From contig JANXBX010000006.1 of NCBI GenBank assembly GCA_025060595.1, positions 65,657 to 129,656 of the forward strand: a DNA stretch of 64,000 bases. The letters are read 5' to 3'. The notes under the pieces are model-generated. The model saw only the letters and a list, made by a program, of their open reading frames with translations. It ran no database searches and had not been told where the DNA came from. How positions within the stretch are numbered: position 1 is the stretch's first letter; each line of letters begins with the position of its first letter. The position numbers and the translations under genes are program-made. Below are positions 534 through 8,406 of this stretch, piece after piece. This DNA is from Synergistota bacterium (GTDB lineage: Bacteria; Synergistota; GBS-1).

Positions 534-2060
534 CTACTTAAGTCTTATGCCAGCTCCTGGTCCCACCGGAAGGCCTAAGAAATACCATATTATCGCCATA
601 ATTATCCAAGTCACTAAGAACAGCATAGAATATAAGAAGGTCCTTGAAATTATAGTACCTATACCTACGTCTTTTTTGTAAATTGAGGCATAACCTATAA
701 CTATCGGGAAGTAAGTCATAAGCGGAGTAAATGAGTTAGTGCTTGAATCACCTATTCTGTATAAAACTAATGTCCACTCAGGAGTATAACCAAGATAGTA
801 CATCATGGGTACTATAACAGGAGCCATAAACGCCCATTTGGTAGAACCGCTTGTTATGAAAAGATTTATGAAGGTTGAAATCAATGTGATGGCAACAAAT
901 AAACCTATTCCTGTGAACCCTGCACCCTTAAGGAAGTCCGCAAGCTTTATAGCAAGCACAGAGGCCATGTTTGTCTGAGTAAAGGTATAAATGAAGTTAG
1001 CTATGGGAAGTATTATAACGATATACGATGCCATAGTTTTCATGCTTTCCACCATGTAGTTAACCATGTCAGTTGGCCTCTTGATCTTTTCCATGCTCTT
1101 ACCATAGACATATCCTCCTATCACAAAAAAGATAAAGAGTATCGGAACCATGCCTTCAAGGAGAGTAGATGGTACTATCGTATTCTTGGCAGGGTCTCTT
1201 AAAGGACCACCGGGAATAAACGTTAGCAAAAGAACTATTAAAAGATATATGCCAGAAGACCATAAGGCTTTCCTAAGCGCACTAATCTCCTTGTCACTAA
1301 GATGACTTAAATACTCAGGTGGGACTTGCGCACGATCATACTCTTCCTCCCATTTAGCGAATCTCGGCATAGCATACTTTATGGTGAATATAGTACCAAC
1401 TATGGTAAGCACGAAGGTCGAAACTACCATAAAGTAATAATTAGCGGTAGGATATACGCTATACTTGGGATTTACCGCCTTAACAGCGGTATCAGTAATC
1501 CCCGCAAGCAAGATATCAGTACCAGCTATAAATAAGTTAGCGGTGAAACCTGAAGCTGCTGCAACATAGCCTAAAATAAGCCCAAAGATCGGATCCTGTC
1601 TTCTTGAATAAAATAAAGCCGCTGATAAAGGAGGAATGATGACTAAAGCCGCATCGGAAGCTAAATTACCGCAAATGCCGAAAATAAAAATAGCTGGTAT
1701 AAGATACTTGTCCGAGACTCTCGTCATGGTCCTCATGAGAGCCGGGATGAAACCCACCTTTTCAGCAAATCCAGCAGCCATAACCATAACTAACACCAAA
1801 CCTAATGGTGGGAACTTCGCAAAATTGGAAACCACGTTATTAAGGATCCAAGCGAGACCGCTCCTATTTAAAAGGCTTATCACTTTTATCTCCTTACCCT
1901 TTGAAGGATCTATAGCGGAGGCTCCTTCAAACACACCAGAGAGTAATATTACTAAAATCCAAAGAAAAAGGAAAATCCAGAACATATGCGGAAGCTTGTT
2001 ACCTACCCTTTCTATCCAGTTGACAAAACGTGTTAGAGCACTTCCCCTAGCTTCGGACAT
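534..2060 (-). CDS. abgT: AbgT family transporter (p-aminobenzoyl-glutamate / short peptide uptake)
   Basis: A 508-aa polytopic membrane protein. The overall sequence (MSEARGSALTRFVNWIERVGNKLPHMFWIFLFL...) is recognisable as the AbgT family. It pairs with the M20 amidohydrolase next door. Confidence 0.8.
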   Translation of the reverse strand: MSEARGSALTRFVNWIERVGNKLPHMFWIFLFLWILVILLSGVFEGASAIDPSKGKEIKVISLLNRSGLAWILNNVVSNFAKFPPLGLVLVMVMAAGFAEKVGFIPALMRTMTRVSDKYLIPAIFIFGICGNLASDAALVIIPPLSAALFYSRRQDPIFGLILGYVAAASGFTANLFIAGTDILLAGITDTAVKAVNPKYSVYPTANYYFMVVSTFVLTIVGTIFTIKYAMPRFAKWEEEYDRAQVPPEYLSHLSDKEISALRKALWSSGIYLLIVLLLTFIPGGPLRDPAKNTIVPSTLLEGMVPILFIFFVIGGYVYGKSMEKIKRPTDMVNYMVESMKTMASYIVIILPIANFIYTFTQTNMASVLAIKLADFLKGAGFTGIGLFVAITLISTFINLFITSGSTKWAFMAPVIVPMMYYLGYTPEWTLVLYRIGDSSTNSFTPLMTYFPIVIGYASIYKKDVGIGTIISRTFLYSMLFLVTWIIMAIIWYFLGLPVGPGAGIRLK

Positions 2061-2137: not shown

Positions 2138-3796
2138 TTATCCTCTATCATCTACATTCGCAGCCAAGACAGCCACTATCTCTCCTTTGTCATTTCTAAC
2201 GGGACAAGATACCGCAAAAGCAGGTCTATTTGTTCCCAAACTCACGTAGGGCTCCCCAACAAAGGGCTCACCCTTCAAAGCGCCTTGGAACCAGGGCCTA
2301 AAAGACCAATCGATATTCCTATCAAGCTTAGAATCAGCGTGGATTATCTTACCGTTTAAACCAACAAGAAGGGGCGTTCTTATGTAAGGATGGCCCTGAA
2401 AGGCCTTATCAAAAAGAGGAATTAAACGATTAAGTTCAAGATTTTTAAACTCTGGAGTTTCAGCTAACTTCAAGAGTACACTTAAGCTTTCTTTGGCCAT
2501 GCGCTCCTTGGTTTCTTTGCTCCACGTTTCCTTAGTATATTGACCAGCTATATTCCTCAATCGACCAGCTACATCAACAAGTCTCTTAACATAGCCCTCT
2601 ATATGCTCTATGGCGGTGCTCTGTTCATTTATGGAAGCGGTAACTTCCTGGATACTTGCTGCCATCTCTTGAGAAAGGGAGGCCAACCTTTCAGACTCAT
2701 GGGCTATCTCGTTTAATCTCTCAACCTGCCCCTTAACCTTATCATCTATAAGATCTAAGGCCCTAGAAACCTCAGAGAAGGTTTGGGAAAATCTATCTAA
2801 GGAAGATACAACCTCTTCACCCTTTTTCAAGTTACCTTTAACAAGCTCAGCTCCCTTAGTTACCTCGGCAGCTACAGATGTAGCATTTCCCCTCATCTCC
2901 TTAGCTAGCGTAGCTATATCCAAAGCCGAAGCTCTCGATCTTGTAGCGAGCTTTCTTACCTCTTCAGCCACAACAGCAAAGCCCCTTCCGCTTTCCCCAG
3001 CTCGAGCAGCCTCTATAGCAGCGTTCAAGGCTAAAAGATTGGTTTGCTCAGCTATCTCAGCCAAGGTATCGACAAAACGATTAATCTGCTCCATTTGCTC
3101 AGCGAGCTCCAACACCCTTTTAGCGGTCTCCTCATTGGAAATTGTAACCTGTCTTATATCTCTCAACAGCGATCCCATCTTTTCCTTAACCTCTTGAGAT
3201 AAAACCTCTGCTTCACCAGATAACTTCCTTACACCCGATGTAGTGCTCGATATATCCTGTGCCAAAGAAGCTAAAGCCTCTATGCTATTAGCTACCTTCT
3301 GAGCTACCCCAGCCTCTTCATCAGCGGCAGTAGATACCTCATTCATGGCATTAGATGCCTCCTTCAACCCTTTCCTGTTAATTTCAACATCTTTATCAAG
3401 AAGAGATATAAAGTGGCTAAGCTCCTCCGAGCTTCTCTGAACATTGCCTATTAATTTGAAGAAGACATCAAGAAGAGGTAAGATAGCATTTCTGACATTT
3501 TGAGGGAACCCCTCCTTCCTTCTGAGAAGAGCGTGATCAACACCTACGATATCGCCGCTCCCTAGGAGCTTAATCAGAGCCTCAATCCTAGACAAAAACC
3601 TTAAATCCTTTAAGGCCCAAAATAGACCAAAGATACCGCTACCTACACCCAGGATGGCCAAGCCCAATGGTAGCGACAGTCGAGCCCAGGGAATCCCCCT
3701 TAAAAAATAAATAATAACTATAAACTCTAAAAAAAGACCTGTTAAAATAAATAGAGCGAATACTCTGATTTTCAAGGCAAAAATCCCTCCTCCCAT
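2138..3796 (-). CDS. Methyl-accepting chemotaxis protein. It has two N-terminal TM helices, a HAMP-like segment, an MCP signalling domain and a C-terminal Cache-like domain.
   Basis: MCP signature [31 protein letters not shown]. The C-terminal ~130 aa ([48 protein letters not shown]) resembles the Cache sensor signature. Confidence 0.8.
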
Positions 3797-3827: not shown

Positions 3828-5033
3828 ATGATAGCATGTCTAAAAAAACGGTCAAGGTTTTGCTATCATATTCCTATGATAAAGCTATTCCAAAAACTAG
3901 AAAGGGTAAGCTTAATAGACAGGTTGAATCGATTTACACTTTTAGTCTCAAACGATAAGGGAGATATTATGAAAGCCTATCTTCCTAATTCAGGTAGCCT
4001 AGAGGAGTTATTAATCCCCGGTAGAGTTATATTAGTTACTCAAAATCCCGGTGGAGGACTGCCTCTTAGGGTAGCAGGAACCATAGATGAAGATGGAAAC
4101 GCAATAATGATAGACTCCTTAAAGATTAATGAGATATTCCCGGCAATTATAAATAATATCCCCTCATTAAAAGGATATAGTATATCCCAAAGAGAGGTGA
4201 GATATAAAAACGCAAGATTCGATTTTCTACTAGAGAAAGAGGGAGAAAAGCTTATATTAGAAATTAAGGGATGTACCCTATTTACACAAGATGTGGCATC
4301 CTTTCCAGACGCTCCTACTAAAAGAGGAGTCAAACATTTAAAGCTGCTTTCAGACCTGCAATCAGACCTTAAAGGTGGTATCCTCTTTTTAATCCAAAAG
4401 CCGGTTAAATATTTCCTGCCTAACTTTCATACAGATTTAGAGTTCGCAAGGGAGATATTCAAGGCAAAGGATAAAATTCTTATAGAAGCTATAAGCTTAA
4501 AATGGGATGAAGAGTTAAACCTTATCGAAGATTCCATATCTAAGGTGGAAATCCCCTGGGAAGCAACTAAGCCCTTCTTAGAGGACAAAGGTGTATATCT
4601 GATACTCATGTTTAACGAGAAAGATAAACAGATAAGCTTCTCAAGAGGATTAAGGGAAAAATCTGCCCTTTTCCCCAGAGGCTTTTACATATATACCGGT
4701 TCAGCGTTAAAGGGACTCTCCTCAAGGATAAAGAGACATATTAAAAAAGAAGGAAAAAACTTCTGGCATATAGATTATATAAAAAGACACATGAAAACTC
4801 TAAAAGCTATAACCATAAAAAGCCCTAACAAGATAGAGTGCGAAATAGCTAATGAGCTTATGACAATAGCAGATAGCTACATCCTAAACTTCGGATCAAG
4901 CGACTGCAACTGCAAAAGCCACTTACTTTATTTCCAAAAAGATCCAAGAAAAATGGATAAATTTATTAAAACTATATTAAAATTTAGATTCGACATTATA
5001 AAAGACATTGTTGAAAGGACTTCGCAATGGTAA
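3828..5033 (+). CDS. sfsA: SfsA (sugar fermentation stimulation protein A) domain fused to a C-terminal DUF123 / GIY-YIG-like nuclease domain
   Basis: The N-terminal ~235 aa carry SfsA hallmarks (LIDRLNRF..., SFPDAPTKRGVKHLKLLSDL). The C-terminal ~130 aa carry GVYLIL...FYIYTGSALKGLSSRIKRH...FWHIDYI, a GIY-YIG-like DUF123 signature. The true start may be the internal Met at ~3876. Confidence 0.7.
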   Translation: MIACLKKRSRFCYHIPMIKLFQKLERVSLIDRLNRFTLLVSNDKGDIMKAYLPNSGSLEELLIPGRVILVTQNPGGGLPLRVAGTIDEDGNAIMIDSLKINEIFPAIINNIPSLKGYSISQREVRYKNARFDFLLEKEGEKLILEIKGCTLFTQDVASFPDAPTKRGVKHLKLLSDLQSDLKGGILFLIQKPVKYFLPNFHTDLEFAREIFKAKDKILIEAISLKWDEELNLIEDSISKVEIPWEATKPFLEDKGVYLILMFNEKDKQISFSRGLREKSALFPRGFYIYTGSALKGLSSRIKRHIKKEGKNFWHIDYIKRHMKTLKAITIKSPNKIECEIANELMTIADSYILNFGSSDCNCKSHLLYFQKDPRKMDKFIKTILKFRFDIIKDIVERTSQW

Positions 5034-5056: not shown

Positions 5057-5722
5057 ATGAATAGACACAGAGTGGGATTAATAAGGGTTCTAACTATAGA
5101 AAACGAGGAGCTTTTAAACGCTCATGGCAGAATGATAGAAAAGGCCTTCCCTGAACTTAAAGTTATAAGCAAATGCATAGAGGATCAACCAAATGGAATT
5201 TACGATGAAGAAACAGAAAGAATAGCAAAGCCAAAGATTTTACGGTTAATCAGAGAATTCGAGGAAAAGGAAAGCGTTGAAGCTATAATCATAAGCTGTG
5301 CTGCGGATCCGGCAGTTGAAGAGGCAAGGGAAACATCGAAGATACCAGTAATAGGCGCAGGGTCTTCCTCTGCTGCAATGGCATTGGCCCTTGGTAAAAA
5401 GGTGGGGGTGCTAAACTTAACGGAAAAAACACCGAAGGTTTTCAAAAGCATTTTAAAGGAAAACTTGGTTGCCGAAGATAGCCCCGAAGGAGTTAAAAAC
5501 ACCTTAGATCTCCTAACCGATTGGGGCAAGGAAAAGGCATTGGAAGCCGCCATAAGGTTAAAGGAAAGAGGATCTCAGGTTATAGCTTTCGCCTGCACTG
5601 GATATTCAACGATCGAGCTCGCCCCCTTACTGGAGAAAGAGATTAAAATCCCCATAGTAGATGCAGTCTTAGCCTCAGGAGCAGTTACACTTTATGCTTT
5701 AAAGATATTTAAAGGTAGGTGA
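5057..5722 (+). CDS. Asp/Glu/hydantoin racemase family protein
   Basis: A 221-aa protein with the layout typical of the Asp/Glu/hydantoin racemase (arylmalonate decarboxylase / maleate isomerase) fold, including AIIISCAADPAVEEA and VIAFACTGYST segments. Confidence 0.6.
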   Translation: MNRHRVGLIRVLTIENEELLNAHGRMIEKAFPELKVISKCIEDQPNGIYDEETERIAKPKILRLIREFEEKESVEAIIISCAADPAVEEARETSKIPVIGAGSSSAAMALALGKKVGVLNLTEKTPKVFKSILKENLVAEDSPEGVKNTLDLLTDWGKEKALEAAIRLKERGSQVIAFACTGYSTIELAPLLEKEIKIPIVDAVLASGAVTLYALKIFKGR

Positions 5723-5729
5723 GAAGAGC

Positions 5730-6812
5730 ATGATACTGAAGGTGAATGAAAAAATCGCTGAGGCTGCAGTTTTAGGAGGGGCCTTTCTAGGCGGCGGTGG
5801 AGGCGGAGATTTAAAGTTAGGGCTTTCTCACGCCATCTTAGCACTAGGCTTAGGTGAAATAGTAATAGCAGATATAGATAGTTTACCTCAAGATAGCTAT
5901 ATAGTAACTGCATCCTTAGTAGGTGCCCCAGCTGCAAAGGAAAGATACGTACTTCCATCACACATGGTCAAATCCTTCGAGTTGCTAAGGGAAACAATTA
6001 AACTTGAAATTAATGGAATAATATCCTCTGAAAACGGTGGATACTCAACTATAAATGGATGGATAGTTTCAGCACTTACCGGTATACCAATAGTAGATGC
6101 GCCTGCAGATGGAAGAGCTCATCCAACAGGAGTAATGGGGGCTATGGGATTACACAAACTTAGAGATTATATATCAATCCAAACTGCCGTAGGAGGAAAT
6201 AAGGATGAGGGAAGATATACAGAAATCCTCGTTAAGGGAAGCCTTGAAAGAGCCTCAAGGATGGTAAGAGAGGCTGCGGTTCAAGCTGGAGGCTTAGTAG
6301 CGGTAACAAGAAACCCTGTAAAAAGGGAGTACGTTAAGGAAAACGGAGCTATCGGAGGAATAACACAAGCAATAGAGATCGGAGGGCTTATGAAAAAATA
6401 CAAAGATGATCCATACACGCTATCAGAGAAGATCATAGCTTACTTCGGCGAAGGAAAAATAATAGACAAGGTAAGAATAGAAGAAGTATCTTTAAAGACC
6501 GAGGGAGGCTTCGATGTTGGGAAAATAATGGTTAAAGGGGAAAAAGACAGCTATGAAATAACCTTCTGGAATGAATTTATGACCTTGGAGAGCTTAAGCG
6601 GTGAAAGGCTCGGAACCTTCCCAGACCTTATATCCATGATAGAAATTGGGAGCTCTATCCCTCTAACTTCCTCTCAGGCGAAGGAAGGCATGGAAGCGCT
6701 TTTACTAGTGATACCAAAAGAGAAAATCCTTCTAGGCTCAGGCGTAAAGGACCCAGAGATTTTAAAAGGGATAGAAAAAGTTATAGGTAAAAAGATAGTA
6801 GGAGGCGATTAA
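5730..6812 (+). CDS. DUF917 family protein (hydantoinase / ASKHA-like)
   Basis: 360 aa. The N-terminal poly-Gly motif VLGGAFLGGGGGGD is characteristic of DUF917. It sits in an operon with racemase-fold proteins. Confidence 0.5.
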   Translation: MILKVNEKIAEAAVLGGAFLGGGGGGDLKLGLSHAILALGLGEIVIADIDSLPQDSYIVTASLVGAPAAKERYVLPSHMVKSFELLRETIKLEINGIISSENGGYSTINGWIVSALTGIPIVDAPADGRAHPTGVMGAMGLHKLRDYISIQTAVGGNKDEGRYTEILVKGSLERASRMVREAAVQAGGLVAVTRNPVKREYVKENGAIGGITQAIEIGGLMKKYKDDPYTLSEKIIAYFGEGKIIDKVRIEEVSLKTEGGFDVGKIMVKGEKDSYEITFWNEFMTLESLSGERLGTFPDLISMIEIGSSIPLTSSQAKEGMEALLLVIPKEKILLGSGVKDPEILKGIEKVIGKKIVGGD

Positions 6813-6814
6813 AA

Positions 6815-7753
6815 ATGCTAAAACAGGTCATTGAGGCATTTGAGCTTCTTGACAGCGCTTATATTAACGGGGAGAGGGTAAAAGAGGCCTTAAACCAGAG
6901 GGGTCTTAATAACGTGGAAGTTAAAAGGATCAGCGGAGAAAAGGGCTCTACAGATTTTATAAAGATCCTGATACCTGGTAAAAGAGGAAAATCCTCTGGT
7001 GGAAGCGCACATACTTTAGGAATAATAGGAAGGCTTGGAGGCATAGGAGCAAGACCAGAAAGAATTGGACTCGTATCTGACGCTGACGGAGCTATAACTG
7101 CCATAGCTGTAGCGCTAAAACTCGGAGACATGATTAAAAACGGTGACGTCCTTGAGGGAGATGTCATAATCGCAACTCACATATGTCCAAATGCTCCAAC
7201 CCAGCCTCATGAGCCTGTTCCCTTCATGGGTTCACCTGTTGATATGGCTACAATGAACAAGTTTGAGGTAGATCCCCAAATGGATGCTATATTATCTATA
7301 GATACCACTAGGGGAAACAGGATAATAAACGTTAGAGGCTTCGCCATAACTCCAACAGTAAAAGAGGGATGGATTTTAAGAGTAAGCGATGACCTTCTTG
7401 ACATAATGGGCTATGTAACAGGGAGAATGCCAGCGGTTGTTCCTATAACTATGCAAGATATAACTCCTTACGGCAACGGCATCTACCACCTAAATAGCAT
7501 CATGCAGCCTGCAACAGCAACAAATGCACCAGTTGTAGGAGTTGCCATCACCGCTGAGATCCCGGTTCCAGGTTGTGCTACCGGAGCAAGTCAAGCAATA
7601 GATATAGAGCTCGCTGGGAGATTTTGTATAGAGGTAGCAAAGGGATTTGGAAGAGGAAAGGTGAAGTTCTATAACGAAGAGGAGTTCAAAAGGTTAATAG
7701 AACTTTACGGTCCCATGAACCATCTGCAAGGGCTGGGGAGGCAATGCAAATGA
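6815..7753 (+). CDS. Hypothetical protein, possibly DUF1177 family
   Basis: 312 aa with no recognisable catalytic motif. It is co-operonic and tightly spaced with the DUF917 and AroM genes. Confidence 0.35.
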   Translation: MLKQVIEAFELLDSAYINGERVKEALNQRGLNNVEVKRISGEKGSTDFIKILIPGKRGKSSGGSAHTLGIIGRLGGIGARPERIGLVSDADGAITAIAVALKLGDMIKNGDVLEGDVIIATHICPNAPTQPHEPVPFMGSPVDMATMNKFEVDPQMDAILSIDTTRGNRIINVRGFAITPTVKEGWILRVSDDLLDIMGYVTGRMPAVVPITMQDITPYGNGIYHLNSIMQPATATNAPVVGVAITAEIPVPGCATGASQAIDIELAGRFCIEVAKGFGRGKVKFYNEEEFKRLIELYGPMNHLQGLGRQCK

Positions 7754-8406
7754 GGCTCGGCCTTATAACCATAGGTCAATCACCAAGGTCAGATGTAGTC
7801 CCAGAGATGCGACCATATATCAAAGATGTAGAGATATTCGAACTTGGCGCATTAGATGGTCTCTCCTTAGAGGAGATTAAAAAGCTTCATCCTAAAGAGG
7901 GAGAGCCAGTTTTGGTAAGTAGACTTAGGGATGGCACACAAGTTAAGCTAAACGGAAACATAATAGCCCAAAGATTAAAAGAGTGCGTGAAAAGGCTCGA
8001 AAATGAGGTAGATATAATAGGGCTATTGTGCACAGGAGAGTTTAAAGAGTTACGCTCAAATAAAATTCTAATTGAGCCATCTCTTATATTAACTAAGGTA
8101 GTTGAAGCTTTAAATGTTGAAAGACTCGGAGTGCTGATTCCCGAACCTGAACAAGAGGAGATGACCTTAAGAAAGTGGGATGGCAAGGCAAAAGAAATAT
8201 TGATAAGTAGCGTATCTCCTTATACCGGAAGGGAAGAGGATTTTTTAAGCGCTGGAGAGAAACTAAAGAACTGTGACATGGTGGTTTTAGACTGCATAGG
8301 CTACAACCTAAAGGTAAAAAGCCTTATAGGGAAAATAACAGAAAGACCGGTTCTCCTACCAAGAACCCTTATGGCAAGAGTTATAGGAGAGCTCTTAGAG
8401 AGGTGA
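7744..8406 (+). CDS. AroM family protein
   Basis: The N-terminal LGLITIGQSPRSDV is the AroM-family signature start. 220 aa. Confidence 0.55.
   Translation: MQMRLGLITIGQSPRSDVVPEMRPYIKDVEIFELGALDGLSLEEIKKLHPKEGEPVLVSRLRDGTQVKLNGNIIAQRLKECVKRLENEVDIIGLLCTGEFKELRSNKILIEPSLILTKVVEALNVERLGVLIPEPEQEEMTLRKWDGKAKEILISSVSPYTGREEDFLSAGEKLKNCDMVVLDCIGYNLKVKSLIGKITERPVLLPRTLMARVIGELLER

Follow-up and report, generated by a model that had tools for sequence, protein, structure and literature searches.

A widespread fusion of SfsA with a DUF123 module, a candidate two-site nuclease of anaerobic bacteria

The fusion gene and its SfsA half

The stretch of DNA analysed here (the window) comprises 64,000 nucleotides from a Synergistota bacterium (assembly GCA_025060595.1, contig JANXBX010000006.1, positions 65,657 to 129,656 of the forward strand), and it carries a gene in which SfsA is joined to a DUF123 (COG1833) module. 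The gene lies within an uninterrupted single open reading frame (ORF) of 401 amino acids at window positions 3828..5033 on the plus strand, which contains all of the motifs quoted in a preliminary description of the locus (LNRF, SFPDAPTKRGVKHL, GVYLIL, FYIYTGSA, RIKRH and FWHIDYI). A 100% identical NCBI protein of 385 amino acids (P0001) goes by the name 'MAG: DNA/RNA nuclease SfsA [Synergistetes bacterium]'. Since the second methionine, at window position 3876 ('MIKLF...'), is the start both in the NCBI model and in the closest homologues, the real fusion protein is probably 385 rather than 401 residues long, and we therefore place the gene, stop codon included, at 3876..5033 (+), with 3828 marking the longest ORF. 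Residue numbers such as D116 and Y241 are counted from the methionine at 3876, and Pfam domain spans are given on the 401-residue ORF. The family as a whole is basic, with a median pI of 9.4.

Pfam searches place three domains in this one frame, all well above their thresholds: SfsA_N (PF17746) at residues 30-93 (E 2.1e-10, 41 bits against a cutoff of 25), the SfsA 'RE' domain (PF03749) at residues 101-228 (E 2.8e-31, 108.6 bits against 22.8) and DUF123 (PF01986) at residues 282-368 (E 1.4e-24, 86.9 bits against 25). The NCBIfam equivalog TIGR00230 (sfsA) is matched at 142.1 bits, above its cutoff of 126.45. This bears out the domain assignment that had been made from the letters of the sequence, and the accompanying statement that the SfsA module is of normal length also holds. 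In Foldseek the SfsA half of the AlphaFold2 (AF2) model superposes on two solved SfsA structures, 4dap from E. coli and 4dav_A from P. furiosus, the latter with DNA, at E ~1e-21, with TM scores of 0.85-0.87 over 228-234 columns and rmsd values of 2.1-2.5 Å. On the strength of these superpositions the N-terminal part is, as modelled, a complete SfsA.

The N-terminal OB-fold is encoded at 3915..4106 (+) and the PD-(D/E)xK 'RE' domain, with its FPDAxTxRGxKH and HxD motifs, at 4128..4511 (+). In an alignment of 34 fusion proteins (homologues at 36-67% identity), which are conserved along their entire length, junction included, the invariant positions of the SfsA half include R16, N18, R19 and F20 in the OB-fold, D116 and E129-x-K131, and further F143-P144-D145-A146, R150, H154, H185 and D187. 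The catalytic motif spans 4221..4274 (+), with D116 at 4221-4223, E129 at 4260-4262, K131 at 4266-4268 and C133 at 4272-4274. D116, E129 and K131 align with E. coli SfsA, and the D...E-x-K motif is the one given as 'ID-EVK' in the literature (PMC1189080). Cys133, two residues past the catalytic lysine (E-x-K-x-C), is invariant in 34/34 fused SfsA modules, with valine at this position in E. coli SfsA and alanine in P. furiosus SfsA; it would lie on the active-site face of the strand.

The N-terminal 228 residues thus match stand-alone SfsA (4dap; 4da2 and 4dav with DNA; TIGR00230) in OB-fold, PD-(D/E)xK domain, D...ExK, FPDAxTxRGxKH and HxD motifs. What sets the fusion protein apart is an extra nuclease-type module of about 150 residues, attached through a conserved helix with an I-P-W motif. 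A looser analogy can be drawn to the mismatch endonuclease NucS/EndoMS, in which an N-terminal DNA-binding domain precedes a C-terminal PD-(D/E)xK domain in a layout like that of the SfsA half. Foldseek returned weak matches of that half to 2vld and 5gke (E 3e-3 to 2e-2), but with TM scores of 0.19-0.31, rmsd values of 11-15 Å and no sequence relationship.

The junction helix (4551..4580, +) is recognised both in the alignments and in the AF2 model. I226 and W228 of its I-P-W motif are at least 90% conserved among the fusion proteins and the motif is absent from stand-alone DUF123 proteins. All 34 homologues are collinear across the junction, with a conserved linker. The full-length 385-residue AF2 model has a pLDDT of 93 and a pTM of 0.89, with pLDDT 94-96 at the junction; this high confidence, extending through the junction, points to one compact body instead of beads on a string.

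Distribution and origin of the fusion

Because the source is a metagenome-assembled genome, a type of assembly in which such errors occur, an artefact of assembly, frameshift or gene calling that joined two separate genes had to be considered. It can be dismissed as virtually without probability. The frame is uninterrupted, the NCBI protein is identical and the junction is conserved; moreover, PF17746, PF03749 and PF01986 occur together in 120/120 of the best database clusters listed (35-100% identity, ~353-427 amino acids). At least 597 genome stretches encode a relative, and among the best 80 of these, which we inspected, tblastn finds the full-length fusion in every one (80/80 reference-genome loci, with query residues ~1-380 matched), isolate genomes included. 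ORF calling recovers it as a single ORF in 77 of the 81 loci formed by these 80 and the window. In three of the other four (L057, L061 and L080) the overlap filter had retained an antisense shadow ORF over the match region, and in the fourth (L044) a 407-residue plus-strand ORF that fell outside the cluster spans the match; the tblastn match is full length in all four. The covalent link claimed in the preliminary description is thus real, and the frameshift that it named as a possible source of error is refuted by the cluster, locus and junction evidence.

The fusion spans more than 10 phyla. Its hosts include Nitrospirota, Syntrophales/Thermodesulfobacteriota, Omnitrophota, Fibrobacterota, Phycisphaerales, Neomarinimicrobiota, Spirochaetota, Aquificales, Syntrophomonadaceae and Synergistota (Acetomicrobium), together with Negativicutes, among them the isolate genomes of Dialister succinatiphilus YIT 11850 and Colibacter massiliensis as well as Veillonella parvula. 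The SfsA-DUF123 fusion is not a local oddity but a family conserved in anaerobic bacteria of many phyla. Thermococcales SfsA is by comparison unfused in 120/120 of the matches listed.

DUF123 itself is a large family, with 6,405 representatives (at 50% identity) at E<=1e-3 and 1,803 at E<=1e-30. Nearly all of the 150 top-ranked among the 6,405 are shorter than 260 residues, most of them 136-225, which is consistent with stand-alone proteins. A neighbour-joining tree was built from 40 fused and 60 stand-alone domains, the latter sample being skewed to relatives of one proteobacterial query. In it the fused domains form a clade apart from the stand-alone ones, and in an alignment of 5 fused and 14 stand-alone members (A3) they share two deletions relative to the latter. 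The common clade and the shared deletions suggest a single old fusion event followed by spread.

Other DUF123 fusions are rare: among the long representatives we found one methyltransferase fusion, and the rest resemble extended gene calls. The former (P0368, 384 amino acids) has an N-terminal DUF123 domain followed by a class I SAM methyltransferase domain. A fusion of endonuclease III with DUF123 has been described in Methanococcales (MJ0613, MMP0538; PMC1564403). There, too, an enzyme that acts on DNA carries DUF123 at its C-terminus, an arrangement in which two catalytic activities may work together on the same substrate (PMC1564403). The N-terminal partner in that case is, however, a base-excision glycosylase/AP lyase (HhH-GPD) rather than a PD-(D/E)xK nuclease, and the architecture is limited to one archaeal order, whereas SfsA-DUF123 occurs in many bacterial phyla.

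The low overall GC content of the fusion gene (35.6%, against 41.4±2.5 for ORFs of the window) might be taken as a mark of recent horizontal transfer. We discount it as an effect of amino-acid composition, since GC at third codon positions (GC3) is normal (34.9% against 36.8±3.2); with GC3 typical of the window there is no clear sign of recent transfer.

The DUF123 module and its relation to GIY-YIG nucleases

DUF123 was matched by Pfam in 27/27 fused C-terminal domains tested. The module, which follows SfsA in frame as the preliminary description had it, is a complete DUF123; at about 150 residues it is longer than the ~130 given there. Modelled alone, the C-terminal half reaches a pLDDT of 91. 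Its GIY-YIG-like core (4590..4946, +) contains G239-x-Y241 (the 'GIY' element), Y271-x-Y273-x-G275 (the 'YIG' element), R284, R287, H288, W297-H298-x-D300 and E321, every one of them invariant in the 34-sequence alignment. Also invariant is F339-G340-x-S342-D343-C344-x-C346-x-x-H349, whose His/Cys cluster D343-C344-x-C346-x-x-H349 is encoded at 4902..4922 (+). A long C-terminal helix, residues 361-383 of the model, closes the module (4947..5030, +).

The same residues are invariant in the stand-alone members of alignment A3 (Y, G, YxG, R, H, WHxD, E and FGxSDCxCxxHL). Stand-alone COG1833/DUF123 proteins of archaea and some bacteria (PF01986) therefore share with the fusion protein both the core (GxY, YxG, R, H, WHxD, E, FGxSDCxCxxH) and the His/Cys cluster; they differ in having no SfsA partner and in lacking the two deletions that mark the fused domains as a clade of their own. 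The residue that follows E321 is Cys or His in all sequences, and this constancy of position 322 leads us to propose that the His/Cys cluster is a probable metal site formed with H288, H298, C/H322, C344, C346 and H349. A 'metal-binding cluster' has been described for COG1833 (PMC1564403), and the cluster of the fusion protein matches it.

How far the module may be called GIY-YIG-like, the label it was first given, depends on the kind of evidence. In favour are the motifs, with the GIY and YIG strands and their conserved tyrosines followed by the helix arginine (G239-x-Y241, Y271-x-Y273-x-G275 and R284, all invariant), published fold recognition, from which COG1833 was assigned to the GIY-YIG nucleases (PMC1564403), and NCBI naming, stand-alone DUF123 members being called 'GIY-YIG nuclease family protein'. 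The YIG-Arg segment aligns to positions 7-37 of PF01541 and to UvrC 'IYVGKAKDLKKRL'. Among viral models, the best Foldseek match of the C-terminal half is a T5orf172 domain (E 0.014, probability 0.92), a member of the GIY-YIG clan in Pfam.

Comparisons with canonical profiles and solved folds do not confirm the label, and they count among the points against reading the C-terminal half as a second nuclease centre. Canonical GIY-YIG Pfam families are matched below cutoff, PF01541 in 14/27 members and PF20815 in 7/27; the best score is 20.1 bits against a cutoff of 22.6 (E 8e-4) and covers only some 30 residues, the YIG-Arg helix. Alignment with hhalign to the GIY-YIG domains of UvrC from E. coli, B. 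caldotenax and T. maritima is likewise confined to ~20 columns of that helix, at a probability of ~3%. The C-terminal half has no relative in the PDB by sequence, and its best Foldseek hit there has an E of 0.73. E321 is invariant, yet no tool aligned it to the canonical GIY-YIG glutamate. The description of the module as GIY-YIG-like thus finds support in motifs, published fold recognition and naming, and is only partly verifiable.

These observations bear on an alternative in which only one module is catalytic. The DUF123 domain might sense metal or redox state, bind DNA or mediate dimerisation, and in this way regulate or target the SfsA nuclease, or the whole protein might be a non-catalytic DNA-binding regulator. 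The restriction of the canonical likeness to the YIG-Arg helix, with no solved GIY-YIG fold matched, would fit such a module. So would the replacement of the canonical GIY-YIG asparagine, which in all COG1833 members gives way to Asp plus the His/Cys cluster (PMC1564403), D343 being invariant in the fusion. SfsA, for its part, first became known by a regulatory phenotype and by its binding to DNA, which is non-specific (PMC1189080). Against this, the residues expected for GIY-YIG chemistry (two Tyr, Arg and Glu) are invariant in fused and stand-alone DUF123 domains alike, a constancy not readily expected of a module with a purely structural role, and we regard the alternative as improbable. 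Our confidence is high in one part of the interpretation, a prediction from the conserved residues: the protein would act enzymatically on nucleic acid, with both of its centres intact.

Genomic context and a model for function

The neighbours of the fusion gene in the window are, upstream, a divergent chemoreceptor gene and, downstream, a metabolic cluster unrelated to it. The former (2138..3796, -) encodes a 552-residue methyl-accepting chemotaxis protein with two N-terminal membrane helices and an MCP signalling domain at 222-373; a dCache_1 match at its C-terminus (435-548) reverses the usual sensor-then-signalling order. An AbgT-family transporter gene (534..2060, -) also lies upstream. 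Downstream, a tight cluster of four genes (5057..8406, +) encodes an Asp/Glu/hydantoin racemase, an S-Me-THD-like (DUF917) protein, a DUF1177 protein and AroM, and is probably a small-molecule (hydantoin-like) catabolic unit with no relation to the nuclease.

When the ORFs of the 81 loci were clustered, no conserved neighbour of the fusion gene emerged, no family being present in more than 7/81. The neighbours that recur reflect lineage-specific housekeeping synteny, such as gyrA in Veillonella and ffh in Syntrophorhabdus and related lineages, and we accordingly rejected a functional partner derived from gene neighbourhood. Searches with PADLOC (0 families) and PHROG (no matches) were negative for the fusion, and neither a methyltransferase nor any other recurrent partner stands beside it in the 81 loci. 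With no conserved neighbour, no methylase beside it and no match to defence-system or phage families, the fusion looks like a self-contained housekeeping gene rather than one that belongs to an operon, to a restriction-modification system or to a defence island.

The same results bear on the idea of a restriction-like or homing-endonuclease-like nuclease of a defence system or selfish element. Both folds are common among restriction and homing endonucleases (PMC1564403, PMC1189080), SfsA-type domains occur in antiphage proteins of Pseudomonas according to a review (PMC13276650), and plasmids carry some of the stand-alone DUF123 genes, including one that is ~1.5 kb upstream of cas6. For the fusion itself, tblastn with the DUF123 half found none on plasmids, the flanks are of housekeeping type, the 64-kb window holds no second copy of an SfsA or DUF123 domain and GC3 is typical of the window. 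With the negative PADLOC, PHROG and partner results added, a role in defence seems very unlikely.

The surroundings of the unfused relatives are diverse. On the Allochromatium vinosum plasmid pALVIN01 (3556-5450), a DUF1810 gene, a stand-alone DUF123 gene that overlaps its end and a gene for an NYN-domain (RNase-like) protein stand in this order, with cas6 a further ~1.5 kb downstream. Stand-alone sfsA of Pyrococcus furiosus (CP003685.1, 6001-6693 of the extracted locus L094) starts 3 bp past a rubrerythrin gene, within a cluster of rubrerythrins, ferritin, Fur and a pyridine-nucleotide oxidoreductase that forms an oxidative-stress neighbourhood. That of Thermococcus kodakarensis (AP006878.1, 6001-6714 of L095) is followed by genes for a Toprim-domain protein and a Xer-type integrase, and genes for an XPD-like helicase and an OLD-family nuclease lie near it, a DNA-metabolism neighbourhood. 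In E. coli K-12 (NC_000913.3, 158000-166000) thpR, sfsA, dksA, gluQ and pcnB form a run of RNA-related genes with hrpB divergent.

This E. coli arrangement is the main argument for a rival reading in which SfsA acts on RNA and DUF123 adds a second RNA cut or end-processing, so that the protein would be an RNA-processing or RNA-repair nuclease. There sfsA lies between thpR, which encodes an RNA 2',3'-cyclic phosphodiesterase, and dksA, with hrpB (an RNA-dependent NTPase), gluQ and pcnB near. The NCBI family name 'DNA/RNA nuclease SfsA' leaves room for such a role. Single-stranded RNA is a frequent ligand of OB-folds, and the Foldseek matches include OB folds of the IF1/eIF1A type. However, no RNA-related neighbour of the E. 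coli gene recurs beside the fusion in the 81 loci. To our knowledge, the characterised GIY-YIG enzymes are almost all DNases, which again counts against RNA. P. furiosus SfsA was crystallised with DNA (4dav) and DNA binding has been reported for E. coli SfsA (PMC1189080). We consider an RNA substrate unlikely, although it deserves more weight than either of the two preceding alternatives, and place moderate confidence in DNA.

The reading that we favour, by a modest degree of belief, is that of a stand-alone chromosomal enzyme of housekeeping type with two active sites, DNA as its substrate and two cuts; its role in anaerobic bacteria would be that of a small nuclease for repair or processing. 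PD-(D/E)xK enzymes catalyse in a Mg2+-dependent manner, and GIY-YIG enzymes use a single metal together with a Tyr, Arg and Glu set. According to the model, the OB-fold and the SfsA domain would bind DNA in the manner of P. furiosus SfsA in 4dav, and the PD-(D/E)xK centre D116/E129/K131 would cut one phosphodiester bond. The GIY-YIG-like centre of DUF123, with Y241, Y273, R284 and E321, would cut another, buttressed by the His/Cys metal cluster. The two cuts in one bound substrate might be placed on opposite strands, or they might flank a lesion or structure, as with UvrC. The three modules would be rigidly packed in one protein, whose gene has no recurrent partner beside it in the 81 loci. 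By parallel with EndoIII-DUF123, DUF123 might serve as a 'second-cut' module on a lesion- or structure-recognising partner. Our confidence in this precise two-incision scheme is low.

The likeness to UvrC and Cho consists in the union of a GIY-YIG-type centre with an unrelated second nuclease centre in one polypeptide. The fusion protein differs in that UvrB-binding, Endo V-like and HhH domains are absent from it (Pfam, E<=1) and in that the domain order is reversed. By these comparisons the SfsA-DUF123 protein is not a member of the UvrC family; it may nevertheless work like UvrC.

To the fold comparisons that count against a second nuclease centre, three further points have to be added on the same side of the balance for the DNA nuclease as a whole: no biochemical data on SfsA, DUF123 or the fusion were found in the literature searched; stand-alone SfsA and DUF123 genes were not adjacent in any of the 9 contexts sampled (7 for DUF123 and 2 for archaeal sfsA); and E. 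coli sfsA stands beside the RNA-metabolism genes thpR, hrpB and pcnB, so that an RNA substrate is possible. The suggestion in the preliminary description of a DNA repair or processing enzyme accordingly survives in part. Action on nucleic acid is reasonable, because the catalytic-type residues of both modules are invariant, while gene neighbourhood lends the repair or processing role no support.

The nuclease nature of both families had been predicted before (PMC1564403 for COG1833, PMC1189080 for SfsA). The 2006 survey of GIY-YIG proteins gives the EndoIII fusion as the only one for COG1833 (PMC1564403), and a 2012 survey of PD-(D/E)xK proteins does not mention GIY-YIG. In the literature searched no paper contained both 'SfsA' and 'GIY-YIG', and queries for DUF123, PF01986 and 'Uri superfamily endonuclease' gave nothing relevant. 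The architecture is recorded automatically by Pfam pipelines, and the protein is named only 'SfsA' in the sources. SfsA-DUF123 is thus real and widespread, a variant of known families that had gone undescribed. As a kind of system it is not new, since the two domains were known, and so was the idea of a fusion between two nucleases. The annotations 'DNA/RNA nuclease SfsA' and 'sugar fermentation stimulation protein A' hide the second nuclease domain.

The families SfsA and DUF123/COG1833 are both large and old, their members are predicted nucleases, and the literature searched gave no assigned function for either; a conserved fusion with both catalytic sets intact provides 'guilt by association' evidence for a shared substrate. 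It is possible, if doubtful, that the fusion represents an undescribed two-active-site repair endonuclease widespread in anaerobic bacteria and that COG1833, in this protein as in EndoIII-DUF123, is a general 'second-cut' module. If true, SfsA, unexplained since the 1990s, would gain a concrete role in DNA incision. The fusion offers a convenient single-protein entry to the biochemistry and, with cultured hosts such as Veillonella parvula, Dialister and Acetomicrobium, is directly testable, making it a useful lead on the function of two orphan nuclease families.

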